DNA of 62,108 bases, filler included, from Nemertoderma westbladi (GCA_032718475.1; 3 parts of 3 records of this genome joined end to end with filler, not necessarily neighbours in it), one strand, 5' to 3'; shown: positions 215 to 48,390, counted from the first letter of the whole stretch. The notes: a model not told the origin generated them from the letters alone. Translations and numbers: made by a program.

Positions 215-2660
215 GTGCTTCATTTATGGAGTTGATTCCCCATGGAGCCATTGTTCCTAATGTACATTGCCAAAATCCCTCCCTCTGTCTAAGACGTTCT
301 TCCAGGTTTGGTCCCTTCGATACCTGTTCTATTGGGGTTATTCAAACATCATTCCACGTGTGTCCATTCTGCCCAAAATGTGCGTCCACGCAACAGCTTG
401 GTTTCTTCCCATTAGTTGTTTGTGATTTATAGTTCCTTATTCTCTGTTTAACCCTATTACCACTGGGGTGTTTTGACCATTAGCACCACTGGGGGGGGGG
501 GGGGGCGGGCGATTCGGCCCACCCACTATATTTTTGTAGTCGTCCAATGAAATCCTACAAAATTTGGGCTGTTGGTGAAACAACTATAGATGAACACTAC
601 CAAACCTTAAAAAGTTAAAATTTCATAAGCAGGGACTCATAATTTTGATGAAAAATAAAAGTAGTCCCAGGACAAAATTACAAAATTTTTCGTTTTCTAA
701 AAACTAATAGTGTGGCAGTGTTGGCTAGATTTAGTAGGTTTTTCAAGACGCTGAATCGAATGTGATTATATTCCACTTCCAAAAATTGAAGTGGATGCTA
801 TTTTTCGTGCACCTAAGAAGTGGGCGTGGCACTTCAAATTTTGAAAAATTAGATATTCAGAAAATGCCCCTAATTTTTTTATTTCAACGCATCTTTATGG
901 GTTTTCTGGGCCGCTGAATCGATTGAAAGTAATATAGAAGCCTGAAGACTGAGTGGTTCGCCATTTTTGGTGCACCAAAATTAGGGCGTGGCACTTCAAA
1001 TTTTGAAAAATACGAGATTCGGAAAATAAACCAAAATTGAAATTTTAACGAATTTATATAGGTTTTCCAGACCGCTGAATCGATTGAAAGTAATATAGAA
1101 GCCTGAAGACTTAGAAGTTAGCCATTTTTTGAAATCAAAACTTTAGTGTTTTTTCCGAATAAAGTAATTTTGAAAATTTGAAGTGCCACGCCCTAATTTT
1201 GGTGCACCGAAAATTACGTACACAAAGGATTTGAGGCTTCTATATTACTTTCAATCGATTCAGCGCTCCAGAAAACCTATAAAATTAATTTGAAATCAAA
1301 ACTTTAGTGAATTTTCCGAATCTCGTATTTTTCAAAATTTGAAGTGCCACGCCCTAATTTTGGTGCACCAAAAATGGCGAACCACTAAGTCTTCAGGCTT
1401 CTATATTACTTTCAATCGATTCAGCGCTCCAGAAAACCTATAAAAATGCTTTGCAAATCAAAACTTTAGTGTATTTTCAGAATCTCGTATTTTTCAAAAT
1501 TTAAAGTGCCACGCCCTAATTTTGGTGCTCCAAAAATGACGTACCACTACACTTACATACTTGTATAGAGCATTAGAGTGATCCAAACCAATAAAAATAA
1601 ATAAAAATAGCCCAAACATAAATAATTACTAAATCACGAATGACTTTGTAAAATTCGAAAATTTCAAAAAATTTGGTGCTGGAGACCAAATTTTGAGGTG
1701 GCACCCACATCGAAAAGTAGAAATCCAATTGCAACGGCGTTTTTTGCAAAAGATGCGGCATTAAATTTGGTTAATTCTCACAAAAAATTGGGCCGGTACG
1801 TAATGTGGTTGCATAGTTACAGCAACTAAAAACTAGGAAGGGGCCGATTCGGCCCCCCCCCCCCCCCCCAGTGGTAATAGGGTTAAAGTCCTTAGCCGAT
1901 CCACAAGCTTGCTTCTTACATACTTTACAGTTCACCAAATACACGACGTTCTTGCTTTCACATGTCAGTTCACCTCTTATCCTATGATTCCTATTTAATT
2001 CCCTAGTACTTGAACTAAACGTCTTCATCATCTCTATGCTCTCACATGGTTTACATGTTGTCCGTTTACAGTGAATTACCCCCGTTGATGCAATAGAAGA
2101 GGCTAAAGTTACATTTCTTTACTTCCATCCACAAACCGTGATGGTGCCAAGATATTTTTTAGTGTCTCACCTCGCCTTACTACAATATTTATGTTCACAC
2201 GATCCATAAAATCTTTAGTTTCCCTATCTTCCTGTAATATATTCATATGCTTCTTTATTATTTTATTAATGTCGGGTTTCGCAGGCTCATTGTTAGTCAC
2301 AAGGAAAATCTGTTGTTTTTCCGAGTGCTTCTTCCTTTCCTTGACTTTAAGGACTCATTTTGTGTCTTTTTTACAACTGTTGCAAATTGTTGACATACCA
2401 TATCTACGTCCCAACCCCGTGAAACAAATGCCCCTCCAAAACTATGTAAATGCCTTTCTAGGTCCTCCTGATGGCTACAGTTCCTTCTCAACCTCAATGC
2501 AACGCTGTATGGTATGTACTTTGTCTGGCTCCTTGGGTGACATGACTTTGCATGCAAATATTGATGTACATCCATGTCCTTAAAATATGTATCCTTTTGA
2601 ATTTTACCAGTTTCATCTATAAAAATCCTAAGATCTAGGAAATTTATTTCCCTTTTATTG
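215..2660 (-). mobile_element. Decayed Penelope-like retroelement (RT C-terminus plus GIY-YIG endonuclease), split by a MITE at 452-1882
   Basis: Minus-strand fragments: HQYLHAKSCHPRSQTKYIPYSVALRLRRNCS (PLE RT thumb region) and CESKNVVYLVNCKVC (GIY-YIG N-terminus). Removing 452-1882 and one TTAA joins GSAKDF to KQRIRNYKS...HF...REGFWQCTLGTMAPWGIN, the GIY-YIG C-terminus. Stops and frameshifts present; boundaries approximate. Confidence 0.85.
452..1882. mobile_element. Non-autonomous piggyBac-type DNA transposon (MITE)
   Basis: TIR CCCTATTACCACTGGGG / CCCCAGTGGTAATAGGG, flanked by TTAA at 448-451 and 1883-1886. Internal subrepeats (gggcgtggcacttcaaattttgaaaaa, gctgaatcgattgaaagtaatatagaagcc) occur in direct and inverted orientation. 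No transposase ORF. Confidence 0.9.
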
Positions 2661-3092
2661 ATCGTACCGGTACTAACAGAACGCTTATTATATACTTATA
2701 TAATTTAGGCTATGCATATATACCGGTATTCCGGAGTGATATCAGTTTTTGCTGTAATACTGTTATAAATATATAATATATTGTATACCGGTATTTTATA
2801 CATTGTTATCTGTCAGCATTACCTGGGTAGCAATACATTTTAACTGTAAGACTGACCAGTGATAGATTTTAACTGTAAGACTGACCAGTGATAGATTAGT
2901 TAAGTCAACTTGACTGTTGTATAGTAATAGGTATTCAGTAAAGAAACATTTTATAATGTATGAGTCAAAATACACCCTCCTGTCGGATAGCATATTAGAA
3001 CAGACAGTCTGTGACCCCGGTAAAATTGTAAAAAGGACCCGCCTACTGTAAGAAAGGCAATCCCTACGGTAGTTGTATCGGAACCTAGGTTA

Positions 3093-6000
3093 GTGGAGCA
3101 CCATAGGTCTATTATAGGCACTAGGTCCCAGGTGAAAAGAGTTCAAGCTGCTACAGCAGAACAGCCATGTCAGAATGAACCGCTGGAGACCCCTAAGCAA
3201 TCCAGTGGTAATAGCTCTAGTACAGAGGAACTGACACCTACCGCGGCTGATCAGAGAATAGCAGAAGTAGCTGGCGCCAACTCACTCTTCTTTCTCCCTG
3301 GAGGGATGCTCAACCAAATCCTTCCAGCTTTGGAAGAGCATTTAGCAGACTGGGTAAAGAATAGAAGGCCGACTAAAGAGAGTTACGCCGGATATTCGCA
3401 GGAAGAATTGGAATCCTTAGTCGAATCGCAGTGGAACTTTCCCAGACCCGGAGTTCCCTTTAACTTCTCAGAAGTTCCCTGGGAGGATTTACAACAGCTA
3501 GGAGTAAATCGGGAGACCCGAGACCCCATGGTTTGGAAGAGGTCAGCATCCGGTTACATACAGGGATTCTTTAACTCCCTGGGACGACTAGAAACTCAAC
3601 TGTTCCAAGGACAGCTGGAACCTCAAGGGCAAGGACTACTCTTGTTCCAAGTGCGAGAGCGGATCTTAAGGATCAGGCTAATTTTGTCAGCATTCGAAGT
3701 AGCCTCCAAAATAAGACAAGATACATCTCTGCAGGTAGTGGTGCAAGTATGGTTTCAACAAATCAATGATAAAGTCCAGGGAATTGCCATGTGGAAGAAC
3801 CAGTTAGCCGATCAACTCGTATATGGGGAATCCACTGACACGGTTCTATCCTATGGAGAAGGGGAAGTAGAGCTCGAAGTGCAGCCTAAGAAAGATGGTA
3901 TCGACATTTATTTGTCGGATTATCAGCGATTCATCGGAGATCGGGAGTTGAGAAAACGTCAAGTAGGACTGCACCCTAGCAGCGAAGCAGCCGGTAACAT
4001 ACTGGACGCAATAGGTGCAGAGATGCAGGCTGCCGAACAGGAAAACTGAATCAGTAAAGGTAGACGAAGAAACAAAAAGGGCAACTTCTAAGGCTGCATC
4101 TGAAGCGTTGGCTCAACTGGAATTAGAAGCTATCCAAACGAGACAAGAACTGATATGGAAGCAAAGAGAAACGGCTCAAGCCCAAATCAGAAGTCGTTTA
4201 ACTTCCAAGAGACACGGATGTGCAACCTCCTCCGATGAAGGGACTAGGACTGGATCAGAGTGTCAGAGTTACAAATCCATTTCAAACGGGCGTAGACGAG
4301 CTCCCATAGGACACAAATTACTATTACCATGAAGCAAATTACCATGATTCTAGATTCCCTTTAGAAATTACAAATCCCCCCTTAACCAGCAGTCAAATCC
4401 CTGAAACCAAAATTTGCGTCAAATTTCGCGACCAAACTTTTGGTCATGGATTGTCCCCGGTTGTCCCACACACCATCTGGCCACTCCATTGGCGGCTCCC
4501 ACGCGAGCAGTAGAGAGGATGGAAAAGGGGCGACTGGATATGGACAACAAGATCAAAATATCTCGGTTCATGGACCAGTTAAGGAATTTGACTTGTACTG
4601 TAAACACCTTAAAGGAGACGGTAAGAGACAGTAAACTTGAGTTGCAGGAGGTACAGCAACAAATCGCTCTTGAAAGCGATAAATTAGTCAACATAAAAAA
4701 GGGTATACCACCACCCCCTGCAACTGTATTGCAACCACTTAGGTCTGAAGCACATGCGATAGGTGTAGAGCCTATACGCATCTATACTGCCAGTGAAGTG
4801 GAAACTCCTACAGCAAATCATACCAATAATATTAATAGACCAACTTGTAATGATATCCCATATGTGCCTGATAGTAATCCGAAAAATATCTATTCGGATA
4901 ACTCGATATTAAATAATACGATGGCTCAGGAGAGCTTTATGCGTCAGATGGCGAGAACTGAGGCCCGACAAGCCGTGAAAGTTGGCGAAGTCGTCTAATT
5001 TAATGGAGATGAGATGAAATGGTTGCCTTTTAATGAATATTATAAAGACAATATACAAAACTCTGTCCTATCAAACGGAGAGAAGTTAAGATTCCTCATT
5101 GAGTATTTGGAAGGCCCTCCCAAATTGATGGCGTTAAAGTTCATTGGACATCCTGACGGATTAAGACAAGTATGGGATACCCTAACTATCAGGTATGGTA
5201 ATAGGACTAACATAGCTAGATATTTGTATGCAAAGTTAGTGGCGCCCAGAAAATTCCCTAGCACAGGAATTATAGATTTTCCGATGAGGTTCAGGAGATC
5301 TGTAGACAGTTGGAATGGTTAGGTAAGTCTCATGAGTACCAAAGTTCTATGGTGGTAGGAGCTGTAGCGGTGTCTTTACCTAAGGGTTGAGTAGGTACTC
5401 GTTGGGATAAAAAGGTACTATACTTGGAAGATCAATTTAAGATAGACCCTACTATGACTGACCTTATGTCTTTCCTGACTGGAGAGGTAAGATTACATCT
5501 GATTAAGCTAGGAGAAAGGTAACGCCTGTATGTTACGCCGAGTATGAGAGTCAAACGTCTTACGATGAGGACAGTGGACCAAACACTGCCGACGTCTACT
5601 ACACAGATAAGAGCAAAGACATAGAAAAACCCAAATATCAGCAGAAGGACGGAAAGAGAGAACAGCATAAGACTCCTCCGACGTCACCAAAAAGGACTCA
5701 TGGTAAGAAACCCGAAGAAAGAACTCGAGTGCAGAACACCGTACAACCTAAGGTAACTAATCTTAAACCTACATGTGTGTCATGTCAAGGATACCATCAC
5801 CTCAGTAAGTGTGAGGAATTCCTAAAGAAGGACCTCAGAGATAGACATAGTGTAACTTGGGATAAGAGGTTATGTTACAACTGTCTGAGGAGGGGACATA
5901 AGAGAAAGAATTGCTATTCAGACGCTAGGTGCACTAAGTGCGGAGCCAAACATCACTCATTGTTACATACCGAGTTAGACAAGGTGAGTGAGCCTGAGTT

Positions 6001-9000
6001 ACATGTCCAATTTGGAGATGCAATTGATACAGACCAGAATTCGGAGATGGAAGGATTCTACACCGATGAATTTTCCAATGAAAACAAATACTGTTATCTT
6101 ATAAACACAACGGTGTACCGTGCCCTTACCCATGAGGCGACTACCGACGGAGAGGAAGCCCAACTATCCCTTCCCAATAAACAGTTCTCAGGTAAGGTCT
6201 CACAACCATAAAGAGGCATACAAGAATTCACTGTGGTGCAGCTCAGGATACATGGACAAAGTAAGAGTTTAATTAGTAACGCTCTCCTTGATTCAGGTAG
6301 TACAGGCACCTTTATAGATAAGGACTTGGCCGAGGACATATTTGCAGGACAGGAGAAATTACGAACTAAATTGAATCTCTCAGCAATCATGCAGGTATGG
6401 AAATCAACCATTTCTATGGACTACTACATGGGATCACTATCAACTCCCAAGGATGAATCTGGTAAGAACCGCATAAGGTCCATTAAGATGGTAGCGATTA
6501 AGAACTTTGCCGCTAGTCAAGTCGAACCTTATGACTGGGACGAAGATTCCTTCACCCAGAGGCACCAAGTTCCCAGATTCAAACCCAATTATCCGGCAGT
6601 TCAGATGCTCATCGGCCAAAATGCGCACGAAGCACTCGAGACCCTCAAAAAACGACCCGCACGACCACGACCTTTACAAATGTCACAGGACATTACATCA
6701 CAGGACCCTCTGGACAGACCCTCTGAGAAAGGGGAGAGGACGACCATGTCCCTCAAGAGTGCAACGGCATAGAGGCCATGATGGAAGAAACTCTAACAGC
6801 CGAGGAAACTCCATGCTCCTCGGATAACGACGATATACAAACAATATACGATGAGGAGAATGTTATCGAATCCCTCACTGAAACTCAGACTTGGTTCCAT
6901 CAAATCGAACTCTGTAACTTAACACAGCCTAATAACGAGCTGTTGGCTTACGAGGATGATGAGCTCAACGAGGTAGTGGAGCAATACAATGCTAAATTGA
7001 GAGATGAACTCGCCATTCTATTCTTCACTCAAGAAGCTGTGGAACCCAACTCATATGATAGAGCCCTATCAGTAGAGGAGGAAAGAGCTAAACAGATACA
7101 AGCGACGACTACTCGTTACTTAAAGGAGGAGGGTCATTACGAGATTGGCTTACCTTTCCAGAAGAGAGAACCCAGCTTCGTAAACAATCCACCGTTAGCC
7201 ATCAAGAGAATCGAACAACTACATCGACGCTTGTTAAGGAATGACAAGGCTAAAGAGATGTATAAGACCCAGTTGAAAAAGTTCATCGACAAGGGATACG
7301 CAGAGCGAGTTCCCGCCGACACACCTCTGACAGAGAAAACATACTATCTAACACACCACATCCCCAAAGCGGTCATCGATATTATTAAACGTGACATCTA
7401 TATCGATGACCACCTCAAGTCGCTACCTACGGTGGGAGAAGCTGTAGAGGTGGCCAAGGGAACGGTAGAGTGTCTTCAATGCAGTGGATTTCGGTTAACT
7501 AAATTCACCAGCAACTCCCATGAGTTTCTGGAGGCGATCCCAGAGAAAGAACGAGGTGCGAAAGATCTCGACCTCATTAAAGACGACCTCCCAGAGACCA
7601 AAACCCTCGATCTAAAGTGGGATACGGAGAGAGATATTTCGTTCTTCCAATTAATACAATGAGTGGACCCTGTTCGGACTAAATGGATATGCTTGAGCAT
7701 TCTTAGCACGAATTTAGATCCGTTGGGATTCATTAGTCCAGTTGCTCGGAGTCTAGTCCAGCAAATGTGGCTCGAAAACCATTCTTCGGATAACCCGCTA
7801 TAGGGTGAACTATTGAAGAAATAGATGAAGTGGGAAAACTAAGGTCTCCTTAGCCGCCTCAAAGGCTCTAATCAACAACAAGCTGTGGGTCCCAGAGCGG
7901 AATTAAAAGCGGCATTGTACGCTACCGCCATTGGTAGGAATATCACCGAACAGATAGACTACCCGTTGGAGAAAACTGGTTATTGGATGGATGCATTACT
8001 CGTTCTAGAATATTTGACTAACGAAGTCTACCAGTTCAGCGTCTTTGTAACTAACCGCGTAGACATTATACTCAGTCGTACAAAGTTGGACCAATGGAGA
8101 CATTGCCCTGGGACTATTAATCCATCTGACATCGCCTCCAGAGGAGCGACACCCAAGGAACTAACTGAGAAACCAGATTGGCTAGGCGGCCCCGACTCCC
8201 TGAGTAAAGAAGAAGAGGAATGCCCCCCCCCCCCATCTCCCCACTGCCGAGATCAGACAAGCCAAAGGAGCAGAAACTGTTAAGCCAAAGACGCGTACGA
8301 GTAAATCCAAGCTGTTTAAACCAACGCTCACTCTATCGATTCTCCATGCTGCTGATAATGACAATGGTGCCACACCACCAACCCCGAATGGGACTGTAGC
8401 CTATATTCAAAACCACGATTGGAAGACTGGGATACCAGACGTCTCTAGAGGACTCTCACCAAGGGCTATCAAAAATTAATTGGGCAAAAAATTAATTGCA
8501 ATTAATTGACCCAATTAATTGATTGGTGATTTCAAAATAATTGGAAAATTGATTGGGATGGACGCAATTAATTGGATAATTGATTGAGACAGACGCAATC
8601 AATTGGATAATTGATTGCACTAGAAGCAATTATCCAATTAATTCCGTCCATCGCCCAACCCAATCAATAATCCTATTATTATCTATCAATTCTACAGTAG
8701 AAAGTGGGTCAGCGCCCAGCCTTGCAGCATCAGTAATACTTTACTGTTTTACTGTAGACATTGCTTACTATACAGTGCACAAACCGTACACAAACACAAT
8801 GTAAAATAAACTATCCGTATCAGTCTTATTTACAGCATTAGGCCTACCTACTGACTGCATACCACAGCATCAGTCGTTAATTTTAGTTATCTTGATAATG
8901 GTACTGGTACTGCGGCAGTTTGAGCGAGATACTTGACAGAAAGACACTAGGTAGTAAGAACTACCGGCTGACCGGTAGTTAGTAATGTCCAATTGTGATT

Positions 9001-9885
9001 TTAAATCTTCGGGTCAGTATAATAATTGTTCAGCATGATTAATATATTATTGATATTGAATAGTCAGTCATAATAAAGAAATTATGTACATATTATATCT
9101 TAAACTTTTTTAAAATAATTGGCAGTTAATTGCAATTAATTGAATAATTGATTTTGTAAATTCACAATTACAATTAATTGATCGTCTCAAGACTTTAATT
9201 GCAATTAATTGATTGATATAATTTCCAATTGCAATTAATTGATTGATAGCATGCAATTAAATTGCAATCAATTTTTGATAACCCTTGACTCTCGCCCCTG
9301 GTAAAGAGAGTGATGGCCCATTACAGTTCTTGGAATACACTGTGTAAAGCGATTACGTATTTGAAACGGCTTTTCCATCATCATTATTCCAAGACTAAAG
9401 AAATTCACAACGCCATCCCAAGAGAAGTTGAAAAGGTTAATGCTATCAAAGACCTTCCCACTTATCGGCTGTCCACTAAGATTTTAATAGACAAGATCAC
9501 TCATCAGGAGCATGACAATACCAACAAGAAACTACCGAGGCTTCTACAGTGCCATGAGGATCCGGAGAAGTATTTCCTGTTGATAAAAAATCCACAGATG
9601 CGCTTAAAGGATTCTTTGTCCAGTATGATGTTTGATGGATTCATACGTGTTGGAGGGAGATTAACTAATGCACCACTTTCCTTTGACACTAAGTACCCCA
9701 TCATCATTAGAAATCTTGAAATACAAATCAAGATGATTGTAGATGTCCATAGTAATCTTTATCATGCTGGTAGGGAACAAGTTCTTAGCGAAGTTAGATG
9801 CGCTATTATTTTTATAAGCCGCGTAAGGCACTAAACCAAGTTCTTAGGAACTGTATACCCTGTTGGAAAGCATTTAGTAGGCCTT
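3093..9885 (+). mobile_element. Degenerate BEL/Pao LTR retrotransposon gag-pol region
   Basis: In order: Gag DUF1759-like FNGDEMKWLPF...EKLRFL...WDTLTIRYG (~5000-5200); BEL triple Zn knuckle CVSCQGYHHLSKC/CYNCLRRGHKRKNC/CTKCGAKHHSLLH (5773-5970); aspartic protease ALLDSGSTGTFI (~6281); RT YEIGLPF, YYLTHH, IYIDD, GFRLTKF; Pao RNase H region PRAELKAA, FVTNRV, WRHCPGTINPSDIASRG; integrase Zn finger start RVGGRL...H...HAG...C..C (9640-9865). Many stops and frameshifts; integrase core missing; no LTR pair found. Confidence 0.93.
8460..9287. mobile_element. hAT-like MITE inserted in BEL pol
   Basis: TIR CAAGGGCTATCAAAAATT / AATTTTTGATAACCCTTG; 8-bp TSD ACTCTCAC / ACTCTCGC (one mismatch); many subterminal caattaattg motifs; BEL coding sequence resumes on the far side. 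Confidence 0.88.
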
Positions 9886-11075
9886 TAAGGGGGGGGGGGG
9901 GGGGGGGGGGGGGGGTAGCGCATTTTCTGATCAAAAAGTCGAATTTTTGAAACATATCCTATCTGATCCAGAATTTAATGCTGAATCCAAATATGGAAAC
10001 CGTTTTCCCATATCTTGCTTAGTTTTCGAGATATCTGGGATAGAAGATACTGGCTCCGATATATCGCGATGTCGGTAAAGGCGATGAAGTTTGGGGTTTG
10101 CATTCAATTTCTGTAAATTTCTGTGCTCAGTGGTGCTAATTGGATGTCTCCACGAGAAAGAGCATAAAATTTTAATTGAGAAGGTATTTTTGTATGATTA
10201 TTGGACCTACTGATCAGTTTATAAGACAACTTCAAGTCTCCGGAATGAAGCGAATGAAGGAATAAGCGACTCTGCGGTCTTTGCGGGATTATACGGAATA
10301 GACTTATCGGTCATCGGAGATCTTCAAAATGTATAATCTCCAGTTCTAGTGGTCGTACGAAGTTCGTTTTAGGCTCATTCGAAAGCTCTTTTCTTAGAGA
10401 ACAAAGTTATCATTTGATTTAAGACAAAATGTTTGTAAAGCAACATAACATGAATTTGGGTAAAATATGCCTTGGAAATTTTGTTCAAGTTATGATTGTT
10501 CAGGCAGCTTTCAAGACTTTGCCAAACCAAATGGTAACTTTGGTCTCTGAGAAAAGAGCTTTCGAATGAGCCCAAAACGAACTTCGTACGACCACTAGAA
10601 GTGGAGATTATACATTTTGAAGATCTCCGATGACCGATAAGTCTATTCCGTGTAATCCAGCAAAGACCGCAGAGTCGCTTATTCGAGTCCCGTCTTCATT
10701 CTGGAGACTTGAAGTTTGTCTTATAAACTGATCAGTAGGTCCAATAATCATACAAAAATACCTTCTCAATTAAAATTTTATGCTCTTTCTCGTGGAGACA
10801 TCCAATTAGCACCACTGAGCACAGAAATTTGCAGAAATTGAATGCAAACCCCAAACTTCATCGCCTTTACCGACATCGCGATATATCGGAGCCAGTATAT
10901 TCTATCCCAGATATCTCGAAAACTAAGCAAGATATGGGAAAACGGTTTCCATATTTGGATTCAGCATGAAATTCTGCATCAGTGGCACCCACCGATATAC
11001 TTAAAAGACAAAATTTCTAGAATCAGTGGTTAACGTCCCCAGATATGTTCTGGAATAAATTGGTGCCCATCTTAA
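9886..11075. mobile_element. Foldback-type non-autonomous DNA transposon with long inverted arms (possibly Kolobok-like)
   Basis: ~9970-10397 is the near-perfect reverse complement of ~10548-10978 around a ~150-bp spacer. Left end TTAA followed by a G-run; it truncates the BEL integrase. Right boundary uncertain. Confidence 0.75.
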
Positions 11076-11865
11076 TGTAAATTAATAAAATTCACGGGAA
11101 TAAATCCAAATTCATAATTTATTATGAATTAAATAAAATTGTCAATTTTAGACATTATTATAATATTCCTTAAAATTAATCAATTAATAGATCATGGGAG
11201 CAGAGATTCACCCCTAATAATCAATGTGAGAGAATCCCCTGTATGCATTGAATAGATGGCAAAATTAACAAACACCACATATAAGGGAGTCATAATAACC
11301 TTAGAGCCACTATTAAATAGCATCCCAGATCTGTATGCATGATGAATACTCTAATTTCTATTGCTAGCTTTGCATAATGTCACCTTAGCAACGCCAGCGC
11401 TAGAATTAGAATATAGTTAGAGAACAATAGAAAGCTTGCCACATTAAATAGAATGCATAGTGTATAGTATCTAAGAATACACAACAACAACAGTGACATT
11501 CTGGAAGGCATTTGACTAACGGACAAATGGCCCCAAATTGTACGAATTGTGGTATGAATGTGGAATTTGTGCATTTATAGGTGAATGTTACTACTAAAGT
11601 GTGTTTACAGTATTGAACCGCAATTGTGAAAGTACTCCCTTACCTGCGACCAGTATCTCAAGCATCTTGGAGCCCTTGGGACGGACAGTAGAGTGACTCG
11701 CGCTGATTATCATTGTCGTTTTGTAGCTACTCCGTTGGCGTAAACATAATGACAGCGGTACATCAGTGCTGAGGATCTCAGGCTGTCCGGGGGCCAGTCG
11801 GGGGAAACCTCTGAGGAAGCGATGCTCGCTAGCCTTACCTATAAACTCTATAAACTCCCCTATAA

Positions 11866-14800
11866 TGACTGAATTGATAGAGGAAAACCTTGGTATTAAG
11901 GAGGGATATACGCAACCTCTACAAGCGTTTCTCGATAGTTTGTTGAGCGGTGACACTAGTCAATCTACGACTGCGGATGATGACCGTTACATCGAACCTC
12001 CGATGACTGGGGAACAACTTAAACGAGAACTCAATTATCGAAAATTCATCTTGCACTATACGCATTGCGATGGTACGTATATGGGTTTCTTAACTACTGA
12101 TCATCCTATCAACCTACATGATACTAATGATTTGGATACGGAGACAGAGGTGGTTTTATTAAAGTTTTACACACAATGGAGTCGAAATGACAAACCACGC
12201 ATCGAGCATGAAAGTTCTATTAGAAATCGGCTCGAAAGAGAAGATGTGGAAGAACCAGACAAACGTACGAACTTTTACGAATATCTGGAGTTCCTGCGAG
12301 AGACTTATCTCAATATCGCTAGCCAACAGCGATATTGGAAACTCGATATCCTCGATGGTATACATCCCAACCCCATGATCGAACTCAAACGATTATATTT
12401 CACGATGATGTACCTTACAGCAAATCGACCGCTACCTGTTATACCAGAGAGCTTCAAACAGATGGAGGAATACTGTAAGACGGGAGAAAGGTCACCAGCG
12501 TTTCATCTACAAGATATGCGTCTTTGGTATTATTGTGACGAATGAACCAATCAACCAACCAACCAATCAACAAACGGAACGCCATAAGCACCCACGGAGA
12601 CGTTGCACTAAACATAGTTTCACGCGCTATACTTACGGGAGTTTTGAGCGAAACCTATTCGACGTGCTACCCACGTTCGCCTGACTCAAATGCTCCTGGA
12701 GTAAACCCTTGACCAGAATTCCGGAATACTCGGTCAGACCTCCCCATCCCTTAGTGCGACCACAAACTCTCGATCCTAAAAGTATAACCGACCCTCCTGA
12801 GTTATACTCTCTGTTCAAAGATCTAGTTCTACCCAAACAGTTAATCGGTGGCGTTTTAACTGTCGGCCCTATGGATATCCGTCCAACCTACCTAGCCGGA
12901 TTGTGACGAGGACACTTGATCTCCCCGTTCAACCCCTATAATCGGCCCGGTTTAGCAACCATCCAACCCATTACGGAAGTGGAAGAAAGCGTAGTAAAGA
13001 ACATGCTTGAAGCGATTCGTCAAAAGGTTGGAAAGGGAACTTACGACGTTTTAGACAAACGCAAGTTGCATCAACAGGTGCAGGCTGTGAAGGAATTGTC
13101 ATTACCGCAATTTGATCGAGAGATTGAAGAGTTAGAGAGAGATATTGAACTTAGACATACATATTCGTTACAAGAATTCTTGGGTGATCGGTTTCGTAGA
13201 CAAGAAGAGATGAATCAGCTCGAGGAGAAACAGATTGAGTTGAACGAAAGAGAAGAAGCCGCTTTAGCGCAACCCGAAGCGCAAGTACTCATGACTGACC
13301 TCTATTCGAAAACCATCATACACCCCTTGATGATTCCCCAGTTTGGCTTCAACTCTTTGCCACTGCACAACCCCAACCAGTCAACACCGATTTGAGATCT
13401 CGTGAACTCATCGCTGACGCCCCCATGCTACAGCATTCTCCAATTGAAACCACTCGAGTAGACGGTATACTGGTGGAACCTCTGGAATACCGAGCCGACC
13501 TTATCCATCGTATGGTGCAAGAGGTTATTATGCGAGCGAGACCCTTGTAAATCTCATTCTACGGCATCAAACATTATCCATATTACGTCCATTTGGCTCA
13601 ATATTATATGGTGAAACCTGAGGATCCTACGCACAGCTTAAGATTTCTACCTCTAATAAACCCTTTCGATGTTGTTGAATTAGAACAGCTTCAAAAACAT
13701 CTAGACCATTTGGTTAAGTCGAACTCCTTTCGAAAGCCCTATACTGTTGCGAGAATCGAAAAGGAAGTTCCCCCTCCTTACAATCTTGATGGGTTCATCA
13801 AAACTCGATTAGTCCATTGGAATTTGAATGTGTTGTTCAAAGAAGAACGCATACAACGCTATGGAAAAGAAGATACACACACTATGCACTATTTGAAATA
13901 TTGTGATCTCCCTAATGTGAGTGATAGAGCGACATTGTGGCACCCTGTAGATATGACTTTGGAAAAGGCCACTGCCAAATGGAATGAAACTCAAAATATT
14001 ATTGAAATGTGTGGTGTCGTAACCTATGACAATGAAGGCAGAGTTCCTGTTGGAGAACTTGGAACCACGAGATTAATCCATATTCGAGGATTAGCCAGTT
14101 CTACACACGTCTTTACTCGCACTTGCTCTGACGCAACGACTTGCTGACGAGTGCTCTGACTTTTGAAACCCTAGCATGAGAAGCGCAAAAGAGACTTAAA
14201 CACGAGCAATTCGAACTCGCACGGCGATACGTCCTGGATACCGAGCAGAAACCAGCTATGGGAATAGATGGATCCATGCTCCCGCAACCTGTATTAGAGA
14301 TGCTATTCGACGAGAGAATAATTAAAGTCAGTTCTGCGATCTACGGATATCTTCGGAATGATTTTAGGAATATGAATAATATTCCATATCCGTTCGTAGA
14401 TACCCAGCTAATAGCACCTTGGGTGGAAGGCAGAGGATTTTTCCGAGCTATGTACTGCACTACGCCGAGTGGGATCAACAAACTTCTATAGGACATTTAG
14501 CGTATCAAGAGTATGGATGGAATTTTAAGATTGGGAATCTGCTCAACTATCAGCAAGTCTATGGCGACCATTATTCCCGTTTATATTTCGATGGACCATT
14601 AACGGCACCAGGAGCGGTTTATAGTTTTATGAGTGTGCCCATCCGTCCCTCCTTAGCCATTTATACCATATTCGAAAATACAGCCCTTTCCGGATGGTTA
14701 GCTGATGTGTGCAGTCGCACTATACGTTTACACCCCTTAATCTTGGGAACCAAACTCGCGAAATTAGATGAACATAACAAATTCATCCGATTTGAATGTT

Positions 14801-15600
14801 TCAGGTGCTTTCTGACTCCGTTTCGGAATGTTGATAGTCAGTTTAAAGAACACGCACTGACCAAACTCAGCCTGCGAGATTCCACCACTGAGAAATTAGA
14901 TAGTGCCGGATTCGCTATCTTCAAAGACGTATGCATACAGAATATGCATTCTACTGTCCTACAGAGACCTAAAATCCTTTCAGTATATTCGGTTATGGAA
15001 ATACAAATTGTAGAACCCACACCTAGAATGACTACACCCATAGAAATTCTGCTGACTGACGAGGAACCCATTTGTATGGGGGCGGATGAAATTTAACCCA
15101 CCGTCCCTTGTAGTAGTGATGATGACCACAAGCTGGAGTGGTATCAAGGCCCACAACGTCTCACTGCCTATGATTACTGACACACCAGCTATGTATCTAG
15201 GAAACGCTGCCATTTATGTGCTTCCCGTGATCACACCACTACTTTGACCTCCGACGAACTTTGTTCCTACTTCAAAGATAAACCCCCAATGGAGATATAT
15301 TGTGCTTATTGTCGAGTCAATAATCAACATATCTTCGCAGTCTGTCCACAGTTCATGACACAATGTCATTACTGTCATTTAAAGGGACACGCTAGTTGGG
15401 ATTGCCCTTTTAGCCCCGACATGCTACATTTTCCCCTACATTCCCACAAAAACCCAAAAGCTCAAATTACGAAATCACTAGCCATTGGATATTATTCTCT
15501 TTATTTACATGTTCACATGTTAGTCACCGTCCAATCAGTATACCTTCCCCCCTACGTCACCCCATACACTGAATTACCGGATCCATTGGTTACGGGTTGA
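11866..15600 (+). pseudogene. Fragmented long ORF region with coiled coil, DnaQ/DEDDy-type 3'-5' exonuclease domain and C-terminal CCHC Zn knuckles; probable retroelement accessory ORF
   Basis: Collinear + strand ORF pieces 11766-12545, 12709-13395, 13593-14147, 14258-14491, 14419-15096, 15244-15600. Exonuclease-like motifs in order: VVTYDNEG, RLIHI, LPQPVLEMLFDERIIKV, FVDTQ, SIGHLA...GWNFK, PLT....Y. Then CAYC....H....C and CHYCHLKGHASWDC. Confidence 0.65.
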
Positions 15601-16179
15601 TGGCATGGAAACTGGTCCCTGATTGGGAGTTCTTGCATGTTCCATACGTTCTACGACGTTCCATATGATTCATGCTTTGTGAACTACTTGAGGCAAGAAT
15701 ATTCTGGCAGGCCTTCAGTAGAGTTGTGATTACCTTATTCACTTCCTAACCCTTTTTGCCCAGAAACACCAGTGGCTAGAAAGATTACAGAATGCAAATC
15801 TATTAAACGTTTACGTTTGCATTCATTTAACCATCCTTCAATACTCACTGCAATACATACTGACTGTCTGATATTGCCGCAACACTGCATTTTTATATTC
15901 TGTTGTTATTGTATCATATGGAATCATGTTAATAGTTGGAGAATACTTACGAATAACCGGTAGATGTCTTGGTTTTCATGATCATTGAGGTAAGAGGAGG
16001 GGTTTACTATTCACAATTAAACATTTCATTTCATTTAATCACCAGGGCAGAAATAACTCCAGAAAGATAGTCTATATTTCCAGTTCAAATAACAGTGGTA
16101 TGTATCAGTTTATGCTGTTTCATAGTCCCCAACGTACGTGAGTTAAGTTCTTCCTATGCAAGTAAAATCGGTGACTGTT

Positions 16180-16590
16180 GGCAAAGTTAGTGTGTTTTAG
16201 TAATATTACCCGTCCGTGTGAGAGTGTGAAGTGAACGTTCAATAAATACATTCCTAAAGGATGTAAACATTTGCGTTATCTTATGCCCACCCATTGTAGT
16301 TAGTATAAGTCATATTTCTGCGTAGTATTTAGAGCGCAACACCTGAAAGGAACTCTCAGTATTTAACGGAAAATAAACATAGTTTTTGGAGATTATATAG
16401 TAAAGCTCGACCAAATAATACAAGGTATCCTACGGCTTGTTCCTACGACTTTCTACCATCGAATCCAGTCTCCCACCTCCGGTGGGTCACAAAGTATCCT
16501 ACGTCTTGTTCCTACGACTTTCTGCCATCGAATCCAGTCTCCCACCTCTGGTGGGTCATACGCCGCGCTAGACTGGCTTCGACTGTGTTC
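16180..16590 (+). repeat. Dispersed repeat family copy 1 (others at 51445-51770 and, inverted, 47430-47730)
   Basis: Shared blocks tacattcctaaag.atgtaaac, tagtttttggagatta.atagta and agtctcccac...ggtgggtcatacgccgcgctagactggc.tcg.ctgtgtt. This copy has an internal ~68-bp tandem duplication at ~16423-16558. Confidence 0.8.
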
Positions 16591-16957
16591 ATCTGCACTT
16601 ACATAAATCTATACCGCCGTGGGGACAAGTTTGTTGTTGTAGTGCTAGCTGCTAAACACACCTCAATTGAAATAGCTATAAAAAACAAGAACGGGTTGAG
16701 ATCTCGAAAAACCGTTTTCAGATTTGAAATCTCCATTAAAATTAGGTTTAGAATCGATCATAACCCAAAAAGAGAATTTTTAACCCCATATGGCGGCAGG
16801 CTTGTCCCAATTATTCTAATAAATTATAATAAAATAATCACTATAATTATTATGCTGCACACAACGACCGTTTGACCTACAGTACTGCAGTACACAGTAA
16901 GTTTACTTTACAGTGTGCTATTTATAATAATACCAGAATACCGTTATGTAATAATAC

Positions 16958-16999
16958 CAAGGCCATCTAAACAACGTTGTTTAGATGGCCTTGAGCTTG
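16958..16999. mobile_element. 42-bp palindromic micro-insertion with 8-bp flanking duplication
   Basis: Perfect 36-bp palindrome CAAGGCCATCTAAACAACGTTGTTTAGATGGCCTTG plus AGCTTG, flanked by AATAATAC at 16950-16957 and 17000-17007. Confidence 0.65.
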
Positions 17000-17036
17000 A
17001 ATAATACCAAGGACTACTGACTAACTAATACCGACT

Positions 17037-17270
17037 GACGAGGAACTGGACGCAATAAAAATTCATCCCTCTCCAGGGGAAATTGGACGCAAATATCAGA
17101 TGATTACTCTCAAAAATAAAACTGTAACCTGTTCAATTGTGTTTAGTTTATTGTTTTGGTTAAAATAACGTGCCACTGTAACCTGCTGCTTTCCCTAAAT
17201 TGAGAATTTAACATTGAGGCGGGATATTAATTTGCCAAGGCTGGTTTTGCGTCCAGTTTCCCCCCTGTCT
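17037..17270. mobile_element. Short MITE-like dispersed repeat; inverted copy at 42175-42365
   Basis: Imperfect terminal inverted repeats (aactggacgcaa / ttgcgtccagtt). The body matches the reverse complement of 42175-42365 and shares aaccaaaacaataaac with the subrepeats at 36553-36960. Confidence 0.7.
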
Positions 17271-17436
17271 CTGTATTGCTGAACTGCAGTACTGCTGTAT
17301 TTGATACTTATTTATTACAGTATTAAATTCAGTATCGGTAATTCAGTAAATATAAATAATAATATAATATCTGAATATTAATAGGCCTAATCATTATTAT
17401 ACATTTTTTTCATTATCAGTAGAAAGAAAGACAGAC

Positions 17437-19317
17437 ATGTCTTATCTAACAACTCTAATGATGGGTTCTATAATTAGTGGGTCTGTTGCCGTATTCACGG
17501 CTTCCCTTGCCGTGGTCTACAAATTAAATCTGTTATATATTCGTGGCAACCCGCCGGACAAGCAGTCTAAACGCAACGGCGGGGAACTCGTTGCCATGGT
17601 GCTAAAGCAACACAAAGTGAAACATCTGTTCACTCTGTGCGGCGGCCACATATCGCCGATACTGGTGGAATGCGAGAGGGCTGGAATCCGAGTGGTTGAC
17701 ACTCGGCAGGAAGCCACGGCCGTGTTCGCCGCCGACGCCACCGCTAGACTCACTGGTGGCGTCGGCGCTGTGGCGGTAACCGCGGGCCCCGGAGTTACGA
17801 ACACGGTAACCGCGGTTAAGAACGCGCAGATGGCCCAGAGCCCTGTGTTGGTGATGGGCGGCGCGGCGGCTTCTATTCTTAAAGGTCGCGGCGCCCTGCA
17901 AGACATACCGCAAGTTGAGTTGTTCCAAACAATATGTAAGGGGTGTTTCACAGTGAAGGTAGTCCGGGATATAATTCCGGTGTTAAGAAACGCAATCCAA
18001 TTGTCTCAAAGTGGCACCCCCGGTCCGGTATTCGTAGAGTTTCCAATCGATGTTCTTTATCCCTACCAACAGGTTTTTAACGAAATCGGAATAAATTCTT
18101 CCGGGAAGAAACGCGGGTTCCTCCAGCGGATAATAAATTTCTATCTCTGTAATTACGTTGATAATTTATTCTCCGGGGCCTGGTTGCCTAGAGATTGCAC
18201 GTCACTTCCACTCGATATCCCGTTTATTTCGGAGGATAAACTCACTCGCGTTGCAAAGTTGGTGAGCCGGAGTAAGAAACCGTTGATTCTTGTCGGGAGT
18301 CAGTCGACGTTGCCGCCCAGTCGTGTGGAAGCGGTTCGCGCGGGGTTGGAATCCCTAGGGATCCCTTGCTACCTGGGCGGGATGGCTCGCGGGCTGCTGG
18401 GCAAACGGAGTCCGACGTTCTTCCGACAACGTCGCCGCGACGCCTTAAGGGACGCGGATCTCATAATCCTTGCCGGATCCGTCGCGGACTTCCGTCTCTC
18501 TTACGGACGTGTTCTACCGCGAAACGCCAAGATAATCGCGGTTAATCGTGATAAAACCCAACTAACGCTCAACTCAGATATGTTCTGGAAACCCACAGTC
18601 GCGGCCATTGCAGATCCCGGAAACTTTATAGTTCGGCTTTCCGAGTTGTTAAAAGGAATGAAAGTCGATGCAGATTGGCTGGGAAGTCTTCGGTCACGTG
18701 ACGATGAAAAGGAACAGGAAAATCTAAAGAAATCTTTAGAGAAATCCGATAAATTTATCAATCCGTTGAGTTTATTGCAGAGAGCCGAGTCGTTTCTCCC
18801 GCGCGATCTCGTCTTGGTTGCGGATGGTGGCGACTTTGTGGGTTCTGCAGCGTACATCCTCCGACCGCGGGACCCATTGACGTGGCTCGACCCCGGGCCG
18901 TTCGGGACCCTGGGGGTGGGCGGTGGGTTCGCGTTGGGGGCCGGGTTGGCTCGTCCTGGGACCCGAGTGTGGGTGGTCTTCGGCGACGGGTCGCTCGGTT
19001 ACTCCCTCGTCGAGTTCGACACGTTCGATCGCCACGGGGTGCCGGTGGTCGCGTTGGTTGGCAACGACGCTTGTTGGTCTCAGATTGCTAGGGAGCAGGT
19101 TCCGATGCTAGGAGCGGCCACCGCTTGCAATCTCTCGCACTCAGACTACCACTTAGCTGTATCCGCCTTCAACGGAGTCGGTCTGCTCCTGGATGACCCC
19201 GACAAAGTCGACGATGTTCTCAGAGAGGCAGACGCAGCCTATAGGGAAGGCAAATCTGTTCTGATAAACGCCTTAATAGGTAAAAGTGATTTCCGATCAG
19301 GTTCCATTTCCGTTTAA
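17437..19317 (+). CDS. ILVBL: Acetolactate synthase-like protein / 2-hydroxyacyl-CoA lyase 2 (TPP-dependent), single coding exon, 626 aa
   Basis: N-terminal hydrophobic anchor; GGELVA...[13 protein letters not shown]; [14 protein letters not shown]; TAGPGVTN; [15 protein letters not shown]; [16 protein letters not shown]; TPP motif GDG...GNDACW; C-terminus [11 protein letters not shown]. Confidence 0.96.
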
Positions 19318-23122: not shown

Positions 23123-23222
23123 NNNNNNNNNNNNNNNNNNNNNNNNNNNNNNNNNNNNNNNNNNNNTTAATTAATTAANNNNNNNNNNNNNNNNNNNNNN
23201 NNNNNNNNNNNNNNNNNNNNNN
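23123..23222. other. Artificial assembly gap/spacer
   Basis: 100 positions of N with a central TTAATTAATTAA (stops in all six frames); same layout as 48291-48390. Confidence 0.97.
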
Positions 23223-24850: not shown

Positions 24851-25489
24851 ATCTGATCAGGCTTACACGCCTTCTGTTCAATACTGGCCTACAAACAAAT
24901 AAAACTTGACAGAAATAAGTAAAATCACGTTTAAAATTAAACACGACAGAACGACAGACACACCGATTGAGTTAGTGGTATGCTAAGCTCGCTTACTTTC
25001 GTCGCTCGCCCCACAAGCTTTATTATGGCTTAATACAGGGTATAATATACAACAACTTCTAGAAGCAATTAATCATCATAATTTGTAATTGAAGGGCTAT
25101 ATGGGTATGGGTCTAACCCAAGTTACAAATACAAAATAATACTACATTATATTATGTTTAATTATAATAGCACCCTACCAATATAATTAACACCAGCTCG
25201 ATTGGGAATATTTACATGAACAAATAAAAGCGAGTTAGTGAATATTAAACGAGAGCCTAGAAAGAAATATAGGTTATTTTTATTCATTCAAATACGTAGT
25301 TTTCTATTCAAGTCAATATGTAAGTACAGTAAGTTAATGAAAAGTACTTAATTATACTCTACAGAAGGCCCTTCATATGATACTCATAAATGTTTCCGTA
25401 ATCAATCATAATACTGTACAGTGTACAGCTGTACTGACATACATAAAGTGAGATTACAGATTACAGTAGTTCCTGCAGGTCCTCTAAGT

Positions 25490-26959
25490 ATGGATTTCAT
25501 TAGTATTTTTTTGATTGTAATTGCCTTCATCATTGTCCTATATTTAATTTCGAACCGACACAAGTCCGTCCGGCCTCCAACCCCCCCGGGACTGCCTATC
25601 ATCGGTAATCTCATTGGTTTATACAACACGCGCAGCAACAGGACACTCGCGTGGTCCAGATGGTGCAAAGAACTTAATTCGGATATTATTCGTGTGCGAA
25701 TTCCAGGCCCGTCGTCAGTTATCGTCCTGAATTCGTTCCTTGTCATTAAACAAGCGTTTGTTGAAAATGGCGGACTGTTTTCTAACCGACACGATAAATA
25801 CGAACTCCCTGATGGAATTATTGTATCGAGTGGTAATCTTTGGACTCACCAGCGAAAGCTGTTTATGTCTGTGTTACGACAGTTCTATCTGGGTAAAAGT
25901 AGCTTCGAGAACCGCATTGTGGAAGAGGCTGGTATGCTTAATGATTGGATTGCCAAGTTGAATGGGGTGGAATTTGATTGTTGTAAAATTGTTGGGAAGG
26001 CGGTTTCTAATGTTATTAGTAGTGTTGTTTTTCCTGAACGATTTGATTATGACGACGACGAATTTAATTGTCTTAATAATTTAGTGAATCTACAATTTCG
26101 GGTTAACCCTATTTTAGCCATAATACCAGAATTTCTCGCTAATTTGTTCCTCAGCGATAAAACAAATCGATATACATTAAGATATAAAATGAATGAGATT
26201 TTTAAAAGAAAGATCACGGAGCACCGCGCAACAATAGATTATAGTTCGCCTAGAGATTATATTGATTGTCACATTATAGAGGAGAAAAAATGGATAGATT
26301 TAGGGCAGACAGAAACGGCATCTTTTTTCAGGGACAAAAACCTGGTCACTTCAATAAGCGACATTTTCCTAGCTGGTTCTGAGACAACAGCTAGTTCAAT
26401 GTACTGGTTCGGCCTTGTCATGGTGGCCTATCCGAATATCCAGAGGAAGTGTCAGCGAATATTAGACGAAAATATCGGAAGAGATAGACTCCCAACTCTC
26501 GAAGATTTCTCTAAGATGCCATATTTCGAGGCTTGTTTGTTAGAAGTTTTGCGATTTGGGGTTATTGCCCCGACACCTGTGCCTCACAAGGTTTCACACG
26601 AGTTGAAATTCAACGATTACACCATATACCCTAGTGACTTGATTATAGCTAATTTGTGGAACGTCATGCGAGATCCTGGAATCTGGGAGAAACCCGAGGA
26701 GTTTTTTCCCCAACATTTCCTATCGACCGATGAATCGCGTTTGATTCGGCGGGAGGAATTCATTCCGTTTGGAATCGGACCCCGCGTCTGTGCCGGGGAG
26801 CGACTCGCTAAGATGGAGTTTCGATTGTTTAGCAGTCACCTCCTCCACCGGTTCACCCTGCATCCCTCCGGTGATCTTCCGAGTCTCCACGACCCCGAAC
26901 CCGGATTTACTTTACAACCAAAACCGTATAAAATACGGGCCGTTCTCAGGGTCGATTAA
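25490..26959 (+). CDS. Cytochrome P450, CYP2 clan, single coding exon, 489 aa
   Basis: ATG at 25490 gives signal-anchor MDFISIFLIVIAFIIVLYLI; proline hinge PPTPPGLPIIGN; WxxxR (WTHQR); I-helix AGSETT; ExxR (EVLR); PQHF; heme motif FGIGPRVCAG. Confidence 0.95.
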   Translation: MDFISIFLIVIAFIIVLYLISNRHKSVRPPTPPGLPIIGNLIGLYNTRSNRTLAWSRWCKELNSDIIRVRIPGPSSVIVLNSFLVIKQAFVENGGLFSNRHDKYELPDGIIVSSGNLWTHQRKLFMSVLRQFYLGKSSFENRIVEEAGMLNDWIAKLNGVEFDCCKIVGKAVSNVISSVVFPERFDYDDDEFNCLNNLVNLQFRVNPILAIIPEFLANLFLSDKTNRYTLRYKMNEIFKRKITEHRATIDYSSPRDYIDCHIIEEKKWIDLGQTETASFFRDKNLVTSISDIFLAGSETTASSMYWFGLVMVAYPNIQRKCQRILDENIGRDRLPTLEDFSKMPYFEACLLEVLRFGVIAPTPVPHKVSHELKFNDYTIYPSDLIIANLWNVMRDPGIWEKPEEFFPQHFLSTDESRLIRREEFIPFGIGPRVCAGERLAKMEFRLFSSHLLHRFTLHPSGDLPSLHDPEPGFTLQPKPYKIRAVLRVD

Positions 26960-28060: not shown

Positions 28061-28775
28061 CGTATATATAAGACCTACTATAAGTTAGCAAATATCTAAG
28101 TTCACCAAAGTCAGGCCTTGCAGTTCGTTTTACCATGTCGGGTACCGTAGCTAAAACTATTATAATCTACTGCAGTACTGTCATTACTGACATACTGATA
28201 TGCAGATATGTATGACTGTATGCAGATATGATATAGCTGTATAGGGGCCCCTAAACCATTGCACGCACACTATGCACTAGGCATTTTACCTGTTACCATA
28301 GTGATGGTGCAGAAGACAGGTCTACTACAGTGTTAATAGAAAATAATATCAGAATTATTTTAATAGTTCCGTTTACATACCGTATGGTTTACTGGTTTAG
28401 GCCAAGTCTTTCTCTCAGTCTCTTATCTGTTTATATAGGGCCTATAGGTTAGGCTCACTTTTACTTGACAATTTCAGAATTTACAGTTTGTTTCCACCTT
28501 GGTACCGGTCAGCCGGTAGGCCTAGGCCTACATCCTGCATCATATTGCAGTATTGGTAGACTATTTTGTTTAACATTGACTTTTATTGTTGGATAGGCAG
28601 AGCACATAGGGCACACAGGCACAGGGCATAGCACATAGCATACCAGCACACTGGCATATGGCATACGGGTAACTGCAACTGATGTGATATCCAATCCTGA
28701 CCTGATATACATATGACATATATCTGTATATCCTACCGCCGGTAATGAGACATAAAATTTAATAGAAGTACCGAT

Positions 28776-36170: not shown

Positions 36171-36207
36171 TGAGGTAAAGGGTAAGGAACTACGGCACAA
36201 CGGGTAA

Positions 36208-37569
36208 TGACCTGAATCCGTACCAGTGGGGGCAATTTTTTTGTCGATTTTCCCTATGCCCGTGGTGAAACACTTATGCTTTTAATTACCATTCTGGCTA
36301 TTTATCTATGCCTGTGGCGAAAGACTTATACTTTTATTTACCATTCTGGCTATTTATCTATGCCTGTGGCGAAAGACTTATACTTTTATTTACCATTCTG
36401 GCTATTTATCTATGCCTGTCTGCCTGTGGAGAAAGACTTATACTTTTAATTACCATTCTGGCTATTTATCTATGCCTGTGGAGAAAAACTTATACGTTTA
36501 AGTTTAATTAGGCCTACCATTCTGCTATTTATCTATACCTGCCTGCCTGCGGGAAAGGAGCAGGTTACAGAGACGGGATTTTCTAACCAAAACAATAAAC
36601 GATAACATTACCAATTGAGAGAAAGGAGCAGGTTACAGAGGCGGGATTTCCTAACCAAAACAATAAACGATCACTTAATTAATTGAGGGAAAGGGGCAGG
36701 TTACAGAGGTGGGATTTCTAACCAAAACAATAAACAGTCACTTTACAAAATGAAGGAAAGGAGCAGGTTACAGAGGCGGGCCTTTCCTAACCAAAACAAT
36801 AAACAGTCACTTTACAAAATGAAGGAAAGGAGCAGGTTACAGAGGCGGGCCTTTTGCCTTTTCTAACCAAAACAATAAACGGTCACTTTACCAAATCAGG
36901 CAAAGGAGCAGGTTACAGATTTTCTAACTACTGAACTACGCGGGATTTTCTAACCAAAACAACCGGTCAGCCGGTAGGCCTACCAGTACCGTATTTAAAT
37001 GGTAGGCTACACAGTACGCAGTAGGCATACAGCAGTACCGGTGCCGGTACCGGTACGGAATGCTGTACAGCTACAGCAGTAATTACAGTAGACATACCCT
37101 CCATATCCATTGCACAATGTACTGGACATATGATTTAGGCCTATGTGTTGTGTGTAGTCCACCTCAGGCAGACAGGACTGCAGGAGAAGTGCGTACTTCA
37201 TGAAAAATATACATTGGGACAATATTTTTTCTCACGTGCTGCACGAAGGGAAAAACTATCTCTCATGACAAATTTTTTTAACATCATTAAGTACCTATGC
37301 TGGACTGTCTGTATATCGAATTTCAGTTATATTAAATGAAAATTGAGTAAATGTCGCTCATTTTAAAATTAGATTTTTTACAAAAAATATAAGAACTCTT
37401 GAGTTTGTGACGTGCTGCGCGAAGCGGTATTAGCAATAAATTGAAATTTTTGTTTTCCAAGTTGGTCACTATAGGTTGAACAAAGCCTGTTAAAATTTTA
37501 GGAGCGTTCTGATAAAAAATATTGACAGGGGAGAGGAGATTATCACTGGTACGGATTCAGGATAGAGCC
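36208..37569. mobile_element. Non-autonomous insertion with 18-bp subterminal inverted repeats and 13-bp flanking direct repeat, just upstream of the SANBR ATG
   Basis: GCACAACGGGTAA at 36195-36207 and 37570-37582; CCTGAATCCGTACCAGTG (36211-36228) / CACTGGTACGGATTCAGG (37544-37561); internal tandem repeats of ~53 bp (36280-36540) and ~70 bp (36553-36960). Confidence 0.78.
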
Positions 37570-48290: not shown

Positions 48291-48390
48291 NNNNNNNNNN
48301 NNNNNNNNNNNNNNNNNNNNNNNNNNNNNNNNNNTTAATTAATTAANNNNNNNNNNNNNNNNNNNNNNNNNNNNNNNNNNNNNNNNNNNN
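48291..48390. other. Artificial assembly gap/spacer
   Basis: N-run with central TTAATTAATTAA, identical layout to 23123-23222. Confidence 0.97.

Follow-up and report, generated by a model that had tools for sequence, protein, structure and literature searches.

A candidate third gene with RNase D-like features in a decayed BEL/Pao retrotransposon of Nemertoderma westbladi

What does the broken coding sequence between positions 11865 and 15600 of the DNA analysed here encode, and does it belong to the BEL/Pao retrotransposon in front of it? The whole stretch, referred to as the window, comprises 62,108 nucleotides of Nemertoderma westbladi (GCA_032718475.1) and consists of three records joined with filler. 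The sequence in question, called the extra gene in the following, lies behind gag and pol of the element, in the slot of env. We regard it as fairly likely that this decayed multi-copy gene is the third gene of a BEL/Pao family and codes for an RNA-binding exonuclease protein of the DEDDy RNase D type. It is highly probable that the extra open reading frame (ORF) was part of the same element as pol, and there are good grounds to think that it specified one protein of about 1200 amino acids (aa).

Coding structure and nuclease-like core of the extra gene

Frames of at least 100 codons on the plus strand cover 83% of positions 11865-15600 and 0% on the minus strand, whereas Markov sequences reach a mean of 5% and a maximum of 33% (0/1000 at 83%). 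A preliminary description of this DNA had reported decayed, intronless coding pieces at 11866-15600, which agrees with this coverage except for the start, as the first ATG is found at 11865. Four frame changes and several stops interrupt the pieces (Table 1), and this particular copy is dead. The motifs named at the time are all present at the positions given, i.e., VVTYDNEG (14016-14039), RLIHI (14070), LPQPVLEMLFDERIIKV (14279-14329), FVDTQ (14393), SIGHLA (14485), GWNFK (14515), and PLTAPGAVY (14596-14622), and the final Asp of ExoIII is indeed replaced, by Ser at 14632. The same holds for two CCHC knuckles at 15301-15345 (CX2CX5HX4C) and 15364-15405 (CX2CX4HX4C), to which a third, degenerate one at 15208 can be added; their pattern differs from that of the element's own gag knuckles, and zf-CCHC_3 of Pfam matches them at E 0.33-0.44. 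The coiled coil proposed at about 13050-13290 corresponds to a segment (13054-13290) with 48% E/K/R/Q and a heptad pattern according to a crude composition test, which is not a coiled-coil predictor. No transmembrane segment occurs in the extra ORF (maximum 19-residue hydropathy 1.2), so it is not an env. Synonymous codon usage in 7/7 accessory pieces is slightly closer to BEL than to the host, a weak tendency of +0.005 to +0.038 bits per codon.

For the core of the extra gene, the RNase D model TIGR01388 of NCBIfam is the top one of 18,950 models (E 0.002-0.005), being the best profile match to the pattern K-V...D...P-F-D-T-Q found here, and RNase D is also the best plasmid match of piece 14252-14488 in tblastn (E 0.4). 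A profile of our own, built on 14 bacterial RNase D sequences, selects the core piece and no other from the 1480 pieces of a six-frame translation of the window (E 1.6e-4), and a read-through of the core with stops as X scores 15.3 bits, while none of 2000 shuffles exceeds 5.7 bits. For the DEDDy profiles, 6/60 reference loci were dropped, having no frame that holds both motifs. The ExoI-like motif shows D-x-E at 14028/14034 behind a hydrophobic strand, and the ExoI- and ExoIII-like motifs, neither of which is significant by itself, stand in the right order around the core, while at the ExoII position the acidic residue is missing and a Tyr is found in this copy. Judged from such sequence comparisons, the core very likely has a DEDDy fold. 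With bacterial RNase D itself the likeness is limited, given a score of 17 bits versus a cut-off of 299 for TIGR01388 and no HRDC domains seen; the term RNase D-like denotes the best match in a reference set lacking eukaryotic RRP6, mut-7, and EXD and does not imply a donor.

Sibling copies come from three sequencing runs, representing at most two samples, one of them possibly the source of the window; contigs were aligned at 80% likeness, and those listed are biased to long pieces. They cover 30/30 bins of 2400-17400, and 8 of the 24 longest listed pieces lie in or across the extra gene. Seven tabulated pieces of the extra gene (330-605 bases) are 83-91% identical to the window, a divergence like that of five gag/pol pieces (82-84%), and at variant sites of the extra gene 7-26 contigs per run carry the variant. 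These multiple diverged siblings indicate a repeat family and not a single host pseudogene. One 567-base piece shows 94 substitutions and one gap letter, similar to gag and protease pieces, a pattern suggestive of coding constraint, and the length of the sibling piece at 13051-13616 would allow an open frame through the middle break. In each of the three runs, all depth listed for the ExoII codon (11, 7, and 8 contigs) differs from this copy, the difference yielding an acidic residue provided that the other two bases of the codon are unchanged. Siblings therefore likely keep the ExoII acid, whereas here the acids of both ExoII and ExoIII are gone; among the 40 variants listed of 3093, none falls at ExoIII. 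This copy carries many private changes, and the tail of the ORF after 15496 may be private to it as well, since one contig of each of two runs jumps over 15496-15764 (short side 29 letters).

Other searches gave little. Word-indexed searches among longer proteins found no relative of 13551-14144, 14252-14488, or 11865-12542, which is weak evidence; metagenome scans were blank, and a viral scan with the core piece gave 3 matching stretches and 0 loci. The sole HMMER match to 14380-15093 among 1.84 billion representatives, P0001, is repetitive, its score sums six stretches, and it was rejected as chance. Phage capsid clusters from an Atlas search were likewise discarded for low recognition, and a second Atlas search gave nothing above 0.80. 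No hammerhead or other structured RNA was detected with Rfam in 2400-17400.

Probable link to the BEL/Pao genes upstream and setting of the locus

The genes in front of the extra gene are those of a BEL/Pao element, as had been proposed, which starts at about 3024. Its gag contains DUF1759 (4999-5319) and the triple Cys-His box of BEL gag (5774-5968), and the gene order protease, reverse transcriptase (RT) with YxDD, RNase H, and integrase is that of BEL/Pao, including a Pao-type Peptidase_A17 region matched with stops read as X. Compared by eye with the RT sequences in supplement 2 of PMC554778, the RT has a large internal deletion. The insertion in pol, which comes with 30/31-nucleotide repeats, is absent from one contig of each of the three runs; Rfam gave no intron match for it, and a hairpin is found within it at 8552-8659. 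For the integrase zinc-binding region no Pfam match was obtained.

The integrase had been called truncated and set about 2 kb apart from the extra gene. Instead, it is interrupted by a foldback element and its C-terminal motifs resume at 11195-11330, so that 10983-11864, behind the foldback, is not a spacer; the supposed 2 kb are for the most part no gap, and the true distance is far smaller. On both strands of the window, the best match to E..LNSRP is the one at 11304, with WE 36 codons upstream; its score is reached by 19/3000 null sequences and, together with WE at a fitting distance, by 1/3000. Three further motifs, which we take to be typical of the integrase tail, follow in order behind 11304, and the chain of five motifs scores 72; the highest score is 62 among 400 shuffles and 59 among 140 tiles of the window. 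Published consensus sequences of BEL integrases close with GGxWE...E(A/G)xLNSRP, LNSRP occurring 307 times in supplement 6 of PMC3118150, and in one counted consensus the distance from W to E is about 33 residues (PMC3118150 supplements). The Sinbad integrase extends about 135 residues past its catalytic E (PMC554778/PMC3118150 material), and this length together with the decay leads to a pol end at about 11600-11750. By this reckoning pol likely ends near 11700-11745, and the ATG of the extra gene likely follows an estimated 120-170 bases later on the same strand. Although the link to BEL had been said to rest on adjacency, the integrase motifs directly upstream strengthen it; a pair of long terminal repeats (LTRs) is missing, as discussed below. 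The spacer between pol and the ORF folds no better than shuffled sequences (z 0.03).

The arms of the foldback element (267 nucleotides) are 99% complementary, a G run of 27 bases precedes them, and the element is young; read depth is high there and a target duplication is not evident. Summed contig depth is 20-100 times that of the rest of the element at 4905-5405 (gag), at 9779, and at 10917-11918, and it is similar at all three; as contig depth is not a copy number, high depth at these conserved BEL segments is a hint only, and the peaks could be due to many diverged BEL families or to a high-copy deletion derivative.

At the 3' side, the candidate LTR at 15459-16592 contains a purine tract at 15992, which also occurs within the related fragment 50899-51771, and it ends in TCA at 16591, as does the Sinbad LTR (PMC554778). 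In agreement with the preliminary description, no LTR pair enclosing gag, pol, and the extra ORF was found, so that the two LTRs expected around a complete BEL/Pao element are lacking in this copy, and no target-site duplication was found either. Upstream of gag, at the expected position of the 5' LTR, 1771-2695 (minus strand) carries a fragment that, from its motifs, is presumably an RT tail with a GIY-YIG-type nuclease of a Penelope-like element; since the 5' end abuts this fragment of another element, loss of the 5' LTR is possible. The stretch 50899-51771 is an isolated, diverged copy of the 3' region of the element, whose boundaries show neither a clean TG start nor a target duplication as a solo LTR should. 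Its end runs into the linker TTAATTAATTAA, which is also present inside two N gaps (23123-23222 and 48291-48390), and may be an assembly artefact. Near the 3' end of the element, 16420-16558 is a 69-base tandem duplication, absent from the related copy at 51700.

Table 1. Features of the BEL/Pao element and the extra gene in the window.
Feature	Position	Strand	Evidence or remark
BEL/Pao gag, several frames	3024..6211	+	Pfam DUF1759 E 1.3e-8; three knuckles
Aspartic protease, LLDSG motif	6212..6772	+	Pfam Asp_protease_2 E 0.0033, below cut-off
Reverse transcriptase (YIDD) and RNase H region	6727..8283	+	Peptidase_A17 E 7e-7
AT-rich insertion in pol, 844 bases	8460..9303	.	joint 8459-9304 in sibling contigs
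Linker plus zinc-binding region of the integrase (H...H), broken off at G run	9304..9888	+	by eye
G run and foldback insertion splitting integrase	9889..10982	.	arms 9963-10229 / 10716-10982
Decayed end of integrase core and C-terminal domain	11195..11745	+	WE 11195, EPLLNSIP 11304, KW 11525, IVKVLP ~11621
N-terminal piece of the extra gene (226 aa counted from the ATG), without known family	11865..12545	+	
Broken middle part of the extra gene with stops, a short AACC repeat, and the charged coiled-coil-like segment 13054-13290	12546..13547	+	
Piece of the extra gene with the ExoI-like strand at its end (D 14028, E 14034)	13551..14147	+	
RNase D-like core, ExoII region to DTQ; ExoII non-acidic in this copy	14180..14491	+	
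ExoIII-like segment, with Y 14620 but no final Asp, followed by an unknown domain	14479..15096	+	
Three CCHC knuckles, one of them degenerate; end past 15496 possibly private	15181..15600	+	
3' terminal region, candidate 3' LTR	15459..16592	+	79% over 823 aligned columns vs 50899-51771

Elsewhere, the window contains intronless genes of eukaryotic type as well as LINE-like (long interspersed nuclear element) and other repeats; the presence of BEL/Pao points to an animal host. No RNA run was listed among those containing this DNA, which has no bearing on expression. Five long intronless ORFs of host type are clustered (17368-19317, 25412-26959, 28749-31532, 34401-36281 on the minus strand, and 39302-39748), and the cluster suggests an unusually intron-poor animal genome. 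One of them codes for a thiamine pyrophosphate (TPP) enzyme (Pfam); the other four we take to be a cytochrome P450, a glycosylphosphatidylinositol (GPI) ethanolamine-phosphate transferase, a SANT/BTB protein, and the large subunit of molybdopterin synthase. Reverse transcriptase frames at 52200-54365 (721 open codons) and 59968-60630 (minus strand) are presumably of the LINE type, tandem units of 161 bp form inverted arrays at 730-1611, and no transfer RNA (tRNA) was found.

Alternative explanations

The observations that weigh against a BEL/Pao exonuclease gene concern both the nuclease and its link to pol. With respect to the nuclease, the alignment covers 45-47 residues, beginning at the helix in front of ExoII and reaching to DTQ, with an hhalign probability of 59%, and no Pfam match was obtained to any DEDD family, PF01612 included. 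The DEDDy assignment of the preliminary description is supported by a weak, repeated match to RNase D over this central part. Profiles of 34 short RNase D-like, 6 PolA, and 2 WRN-like proteins miss the core piece, the ExoI motif is the second-best window in its piece (276/2000 shuffles reach the top window), and the ExoIII motif is the best window in its piece, yet 498/2000 shuffles reach its score, so that neither motif is significant. PDB searches with the core piece also return glutamine synthetase, at E 1e-4 to 1e-3 and, for the best single stretch, at E 0.11; this match has no family support and was set aside, and other, weaker PDB matches are due to chance. Weak scores, the blank in Pfam, the rival glutamine synthetase match, single-sequence models that lend no fold support (two flanking pieces with a mean predicted local distance difference test of 34-36, unusable), and the unrelated, poorly recognised capsid clusters from Atlas would suit a real BEL cargo of another fold, resembling DEDDy proteins by chance. 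This seems quite unlikely, as three differently built RNase D references converge on the same 45 residues, the motif order is right on both sides, and the variants of the siblings at ExoII suggest the residue expected there. As the main rival, the family might encode a catalytically dead nuclease, serving as an RNA-binding decoy or adaptor in small-RNA pathways like EXD1 and Maelstrom, which are named as inactive DEDD derivatives in the Discussion of PMC5408684. The Y-x3-D of ExoIII is incomplete in this copy, with Tyr kept and Asp gone, and ExoI and ExoII are 99 codons apart versus at most 85 in 49 references (14 further), both in favour of a dead nuclease. Such a family appears rather unlikely, because ExoI retains D and E, siblings likely keep the ExoII acid, and residues lost from a copy with so many private changes say little about the family; activity in intact copies is slightly favoured.

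With respect to the link to pol, the CpG ratio is 0.69 in gag-pol vs 0.98 in the ORF, and region 15459-16592 has no match upstream of gag. The integrase tail motifs were picked post hoc, a further motif, FWxRW, having been discarded for its unfit spacing, and the integrase end at 11195-11745 is without a Pfam match, as expected from its short frames. Siblings, whose linkage to BEL pol the preliminary description had considered decisive, are found in three runs, but none of the contigs listed spans pol and the extra ORF. Among 7 listed sibling pieces crossing a break, 2 are of a length that would fit an open frame and 5 are not, so siblings are often decayed too. The extra ORF could be part of a different mobile element, either non-autonomous or belonging to another class, which inserted just behind BEL pol or recombined with it: the differing CpG ratio, the missing LTR pair and target-site duplication, the 3' fragment standing alone at 50899-51771, and several nested insertions at the locus would fit, as would the DEDDy ORFs shared by unrelated rotifer retroelements (PMC5408684). 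We consider this unlikely in view of the common strand, the short distance from the inferred pol end to the ATG, the lack of a terminal repeat of its own between pol and ATG, and the similar sibling divergence in both parts. A processed pseudogene of a host exonuclease, lying beside a BEL relic by accident, is most improbable. The neighbouring host genes are intronless too, and the absence of introns cannot separate host from element, but the copies are many and diverged, and no conserved host protein was found in the word-indexed and HMMER searches although a host gene should have given one.

Known systems, possible function and significance

RNase D-like DEDDy ORFs in mobile elements are known, as had been pointed out, from bdelloid rotifers, where the LTR retrotransposons Juno and Vesta possess them as ORF3, as does Athena, and where carriers are found in the Juno, Vesta, TelKA, and Mag clades (PMC5408684). 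The ORF3s of Juno and Vesta, of predicted function, likewise lie downstream of pol in the env position, and some have a zinc-binding Cys-His-Cys motif. Compared by description, the present case differs in its BEL/Pao carrier, about 1200 codons, a coiled-coil-like segment, and CCHC knuckles; rotifer DEDDy ORFs are described in PMC5408684 as lacking coiled-coil and transmembrane domains and as not clearly deviating from neutral evolution. Athena/Terminon (PMC6431247) and Dada (PMC3706591; see also PMC5718144), which are mobile elements of other classes than BEL/Pao, also have a DEDDy exonuclease, either in an accessory ORF or as a domain; in Dada DNA transposons the domain is inside the transposase (PMC3706591), and for comparison with Athena/Terminon no hammerhead was found at the BEL locus. 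Within BEL/Pao, Tas and Cer7 bear env (PMC554778, PMC3118150) and so have an extra coding region after the integrase, as is the case here, whereas the present cargo is nuclease-like and without a transmembrane segment. Env is the only extra BEL gene described in the parts of PMC3118150 and PMC554778 used, and the word exonuclease has 0 occurrences in the main text of PMC3118150. No BEL/Pao element with an exonuclease was found in the literature searched; Repbase and subscription journals, which were outside the scope, may contain such entries.

If the extra gene is the third gene of its BEL/Pao family, a mechanism can be sketched from general knowledge of its domains. The coiled coil might oligomerise the protein or dock it on the ribonucleoprotein of the element, the CCHC knuckles would hold single-stranded RNA, and the DEDDy nuclease would trim 3' ends, the most likely substrate being an RNA tied to the element's own transcript. 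Should the enzyme be active, it may attack host small RNAs or their precursors aimed at the element, thereby countering silencing, or, almost as likely, act on the transcript itself or the end of the tRNA primer; trimming of the ends of the complementary DNA is less likely. The far-reaching version, that a large BEL/Pao lineage swapped env for an active RNase D-type exonuclease of about 1200 aa with coiled coil and CCHC knuckles, an architecture for which 1.84 billion protein representatives gave no relative, and that this enzyme destroys or trims PIWI-interacting RNAs (piRNAs) or small interfering RNAs (siRNAs) of the host, is improbable.

Enzymatic third genes have already been published for rotifer LTR elements, while BEL/Pao elements are described with env at most; if our reading is true, another LTR superfamily has acquired this cargo as well. 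With its many diverged copies, the family would allow a selection test based on catalytic residues and on the ratio of nonsynonymous to synonymous substitution rates (dN/dS), a test that gave no clear answer in rotifers. Were its activity directed against small RNAs, the protein would be a rare case of a transposon-encoded counter-silencing enzyme.

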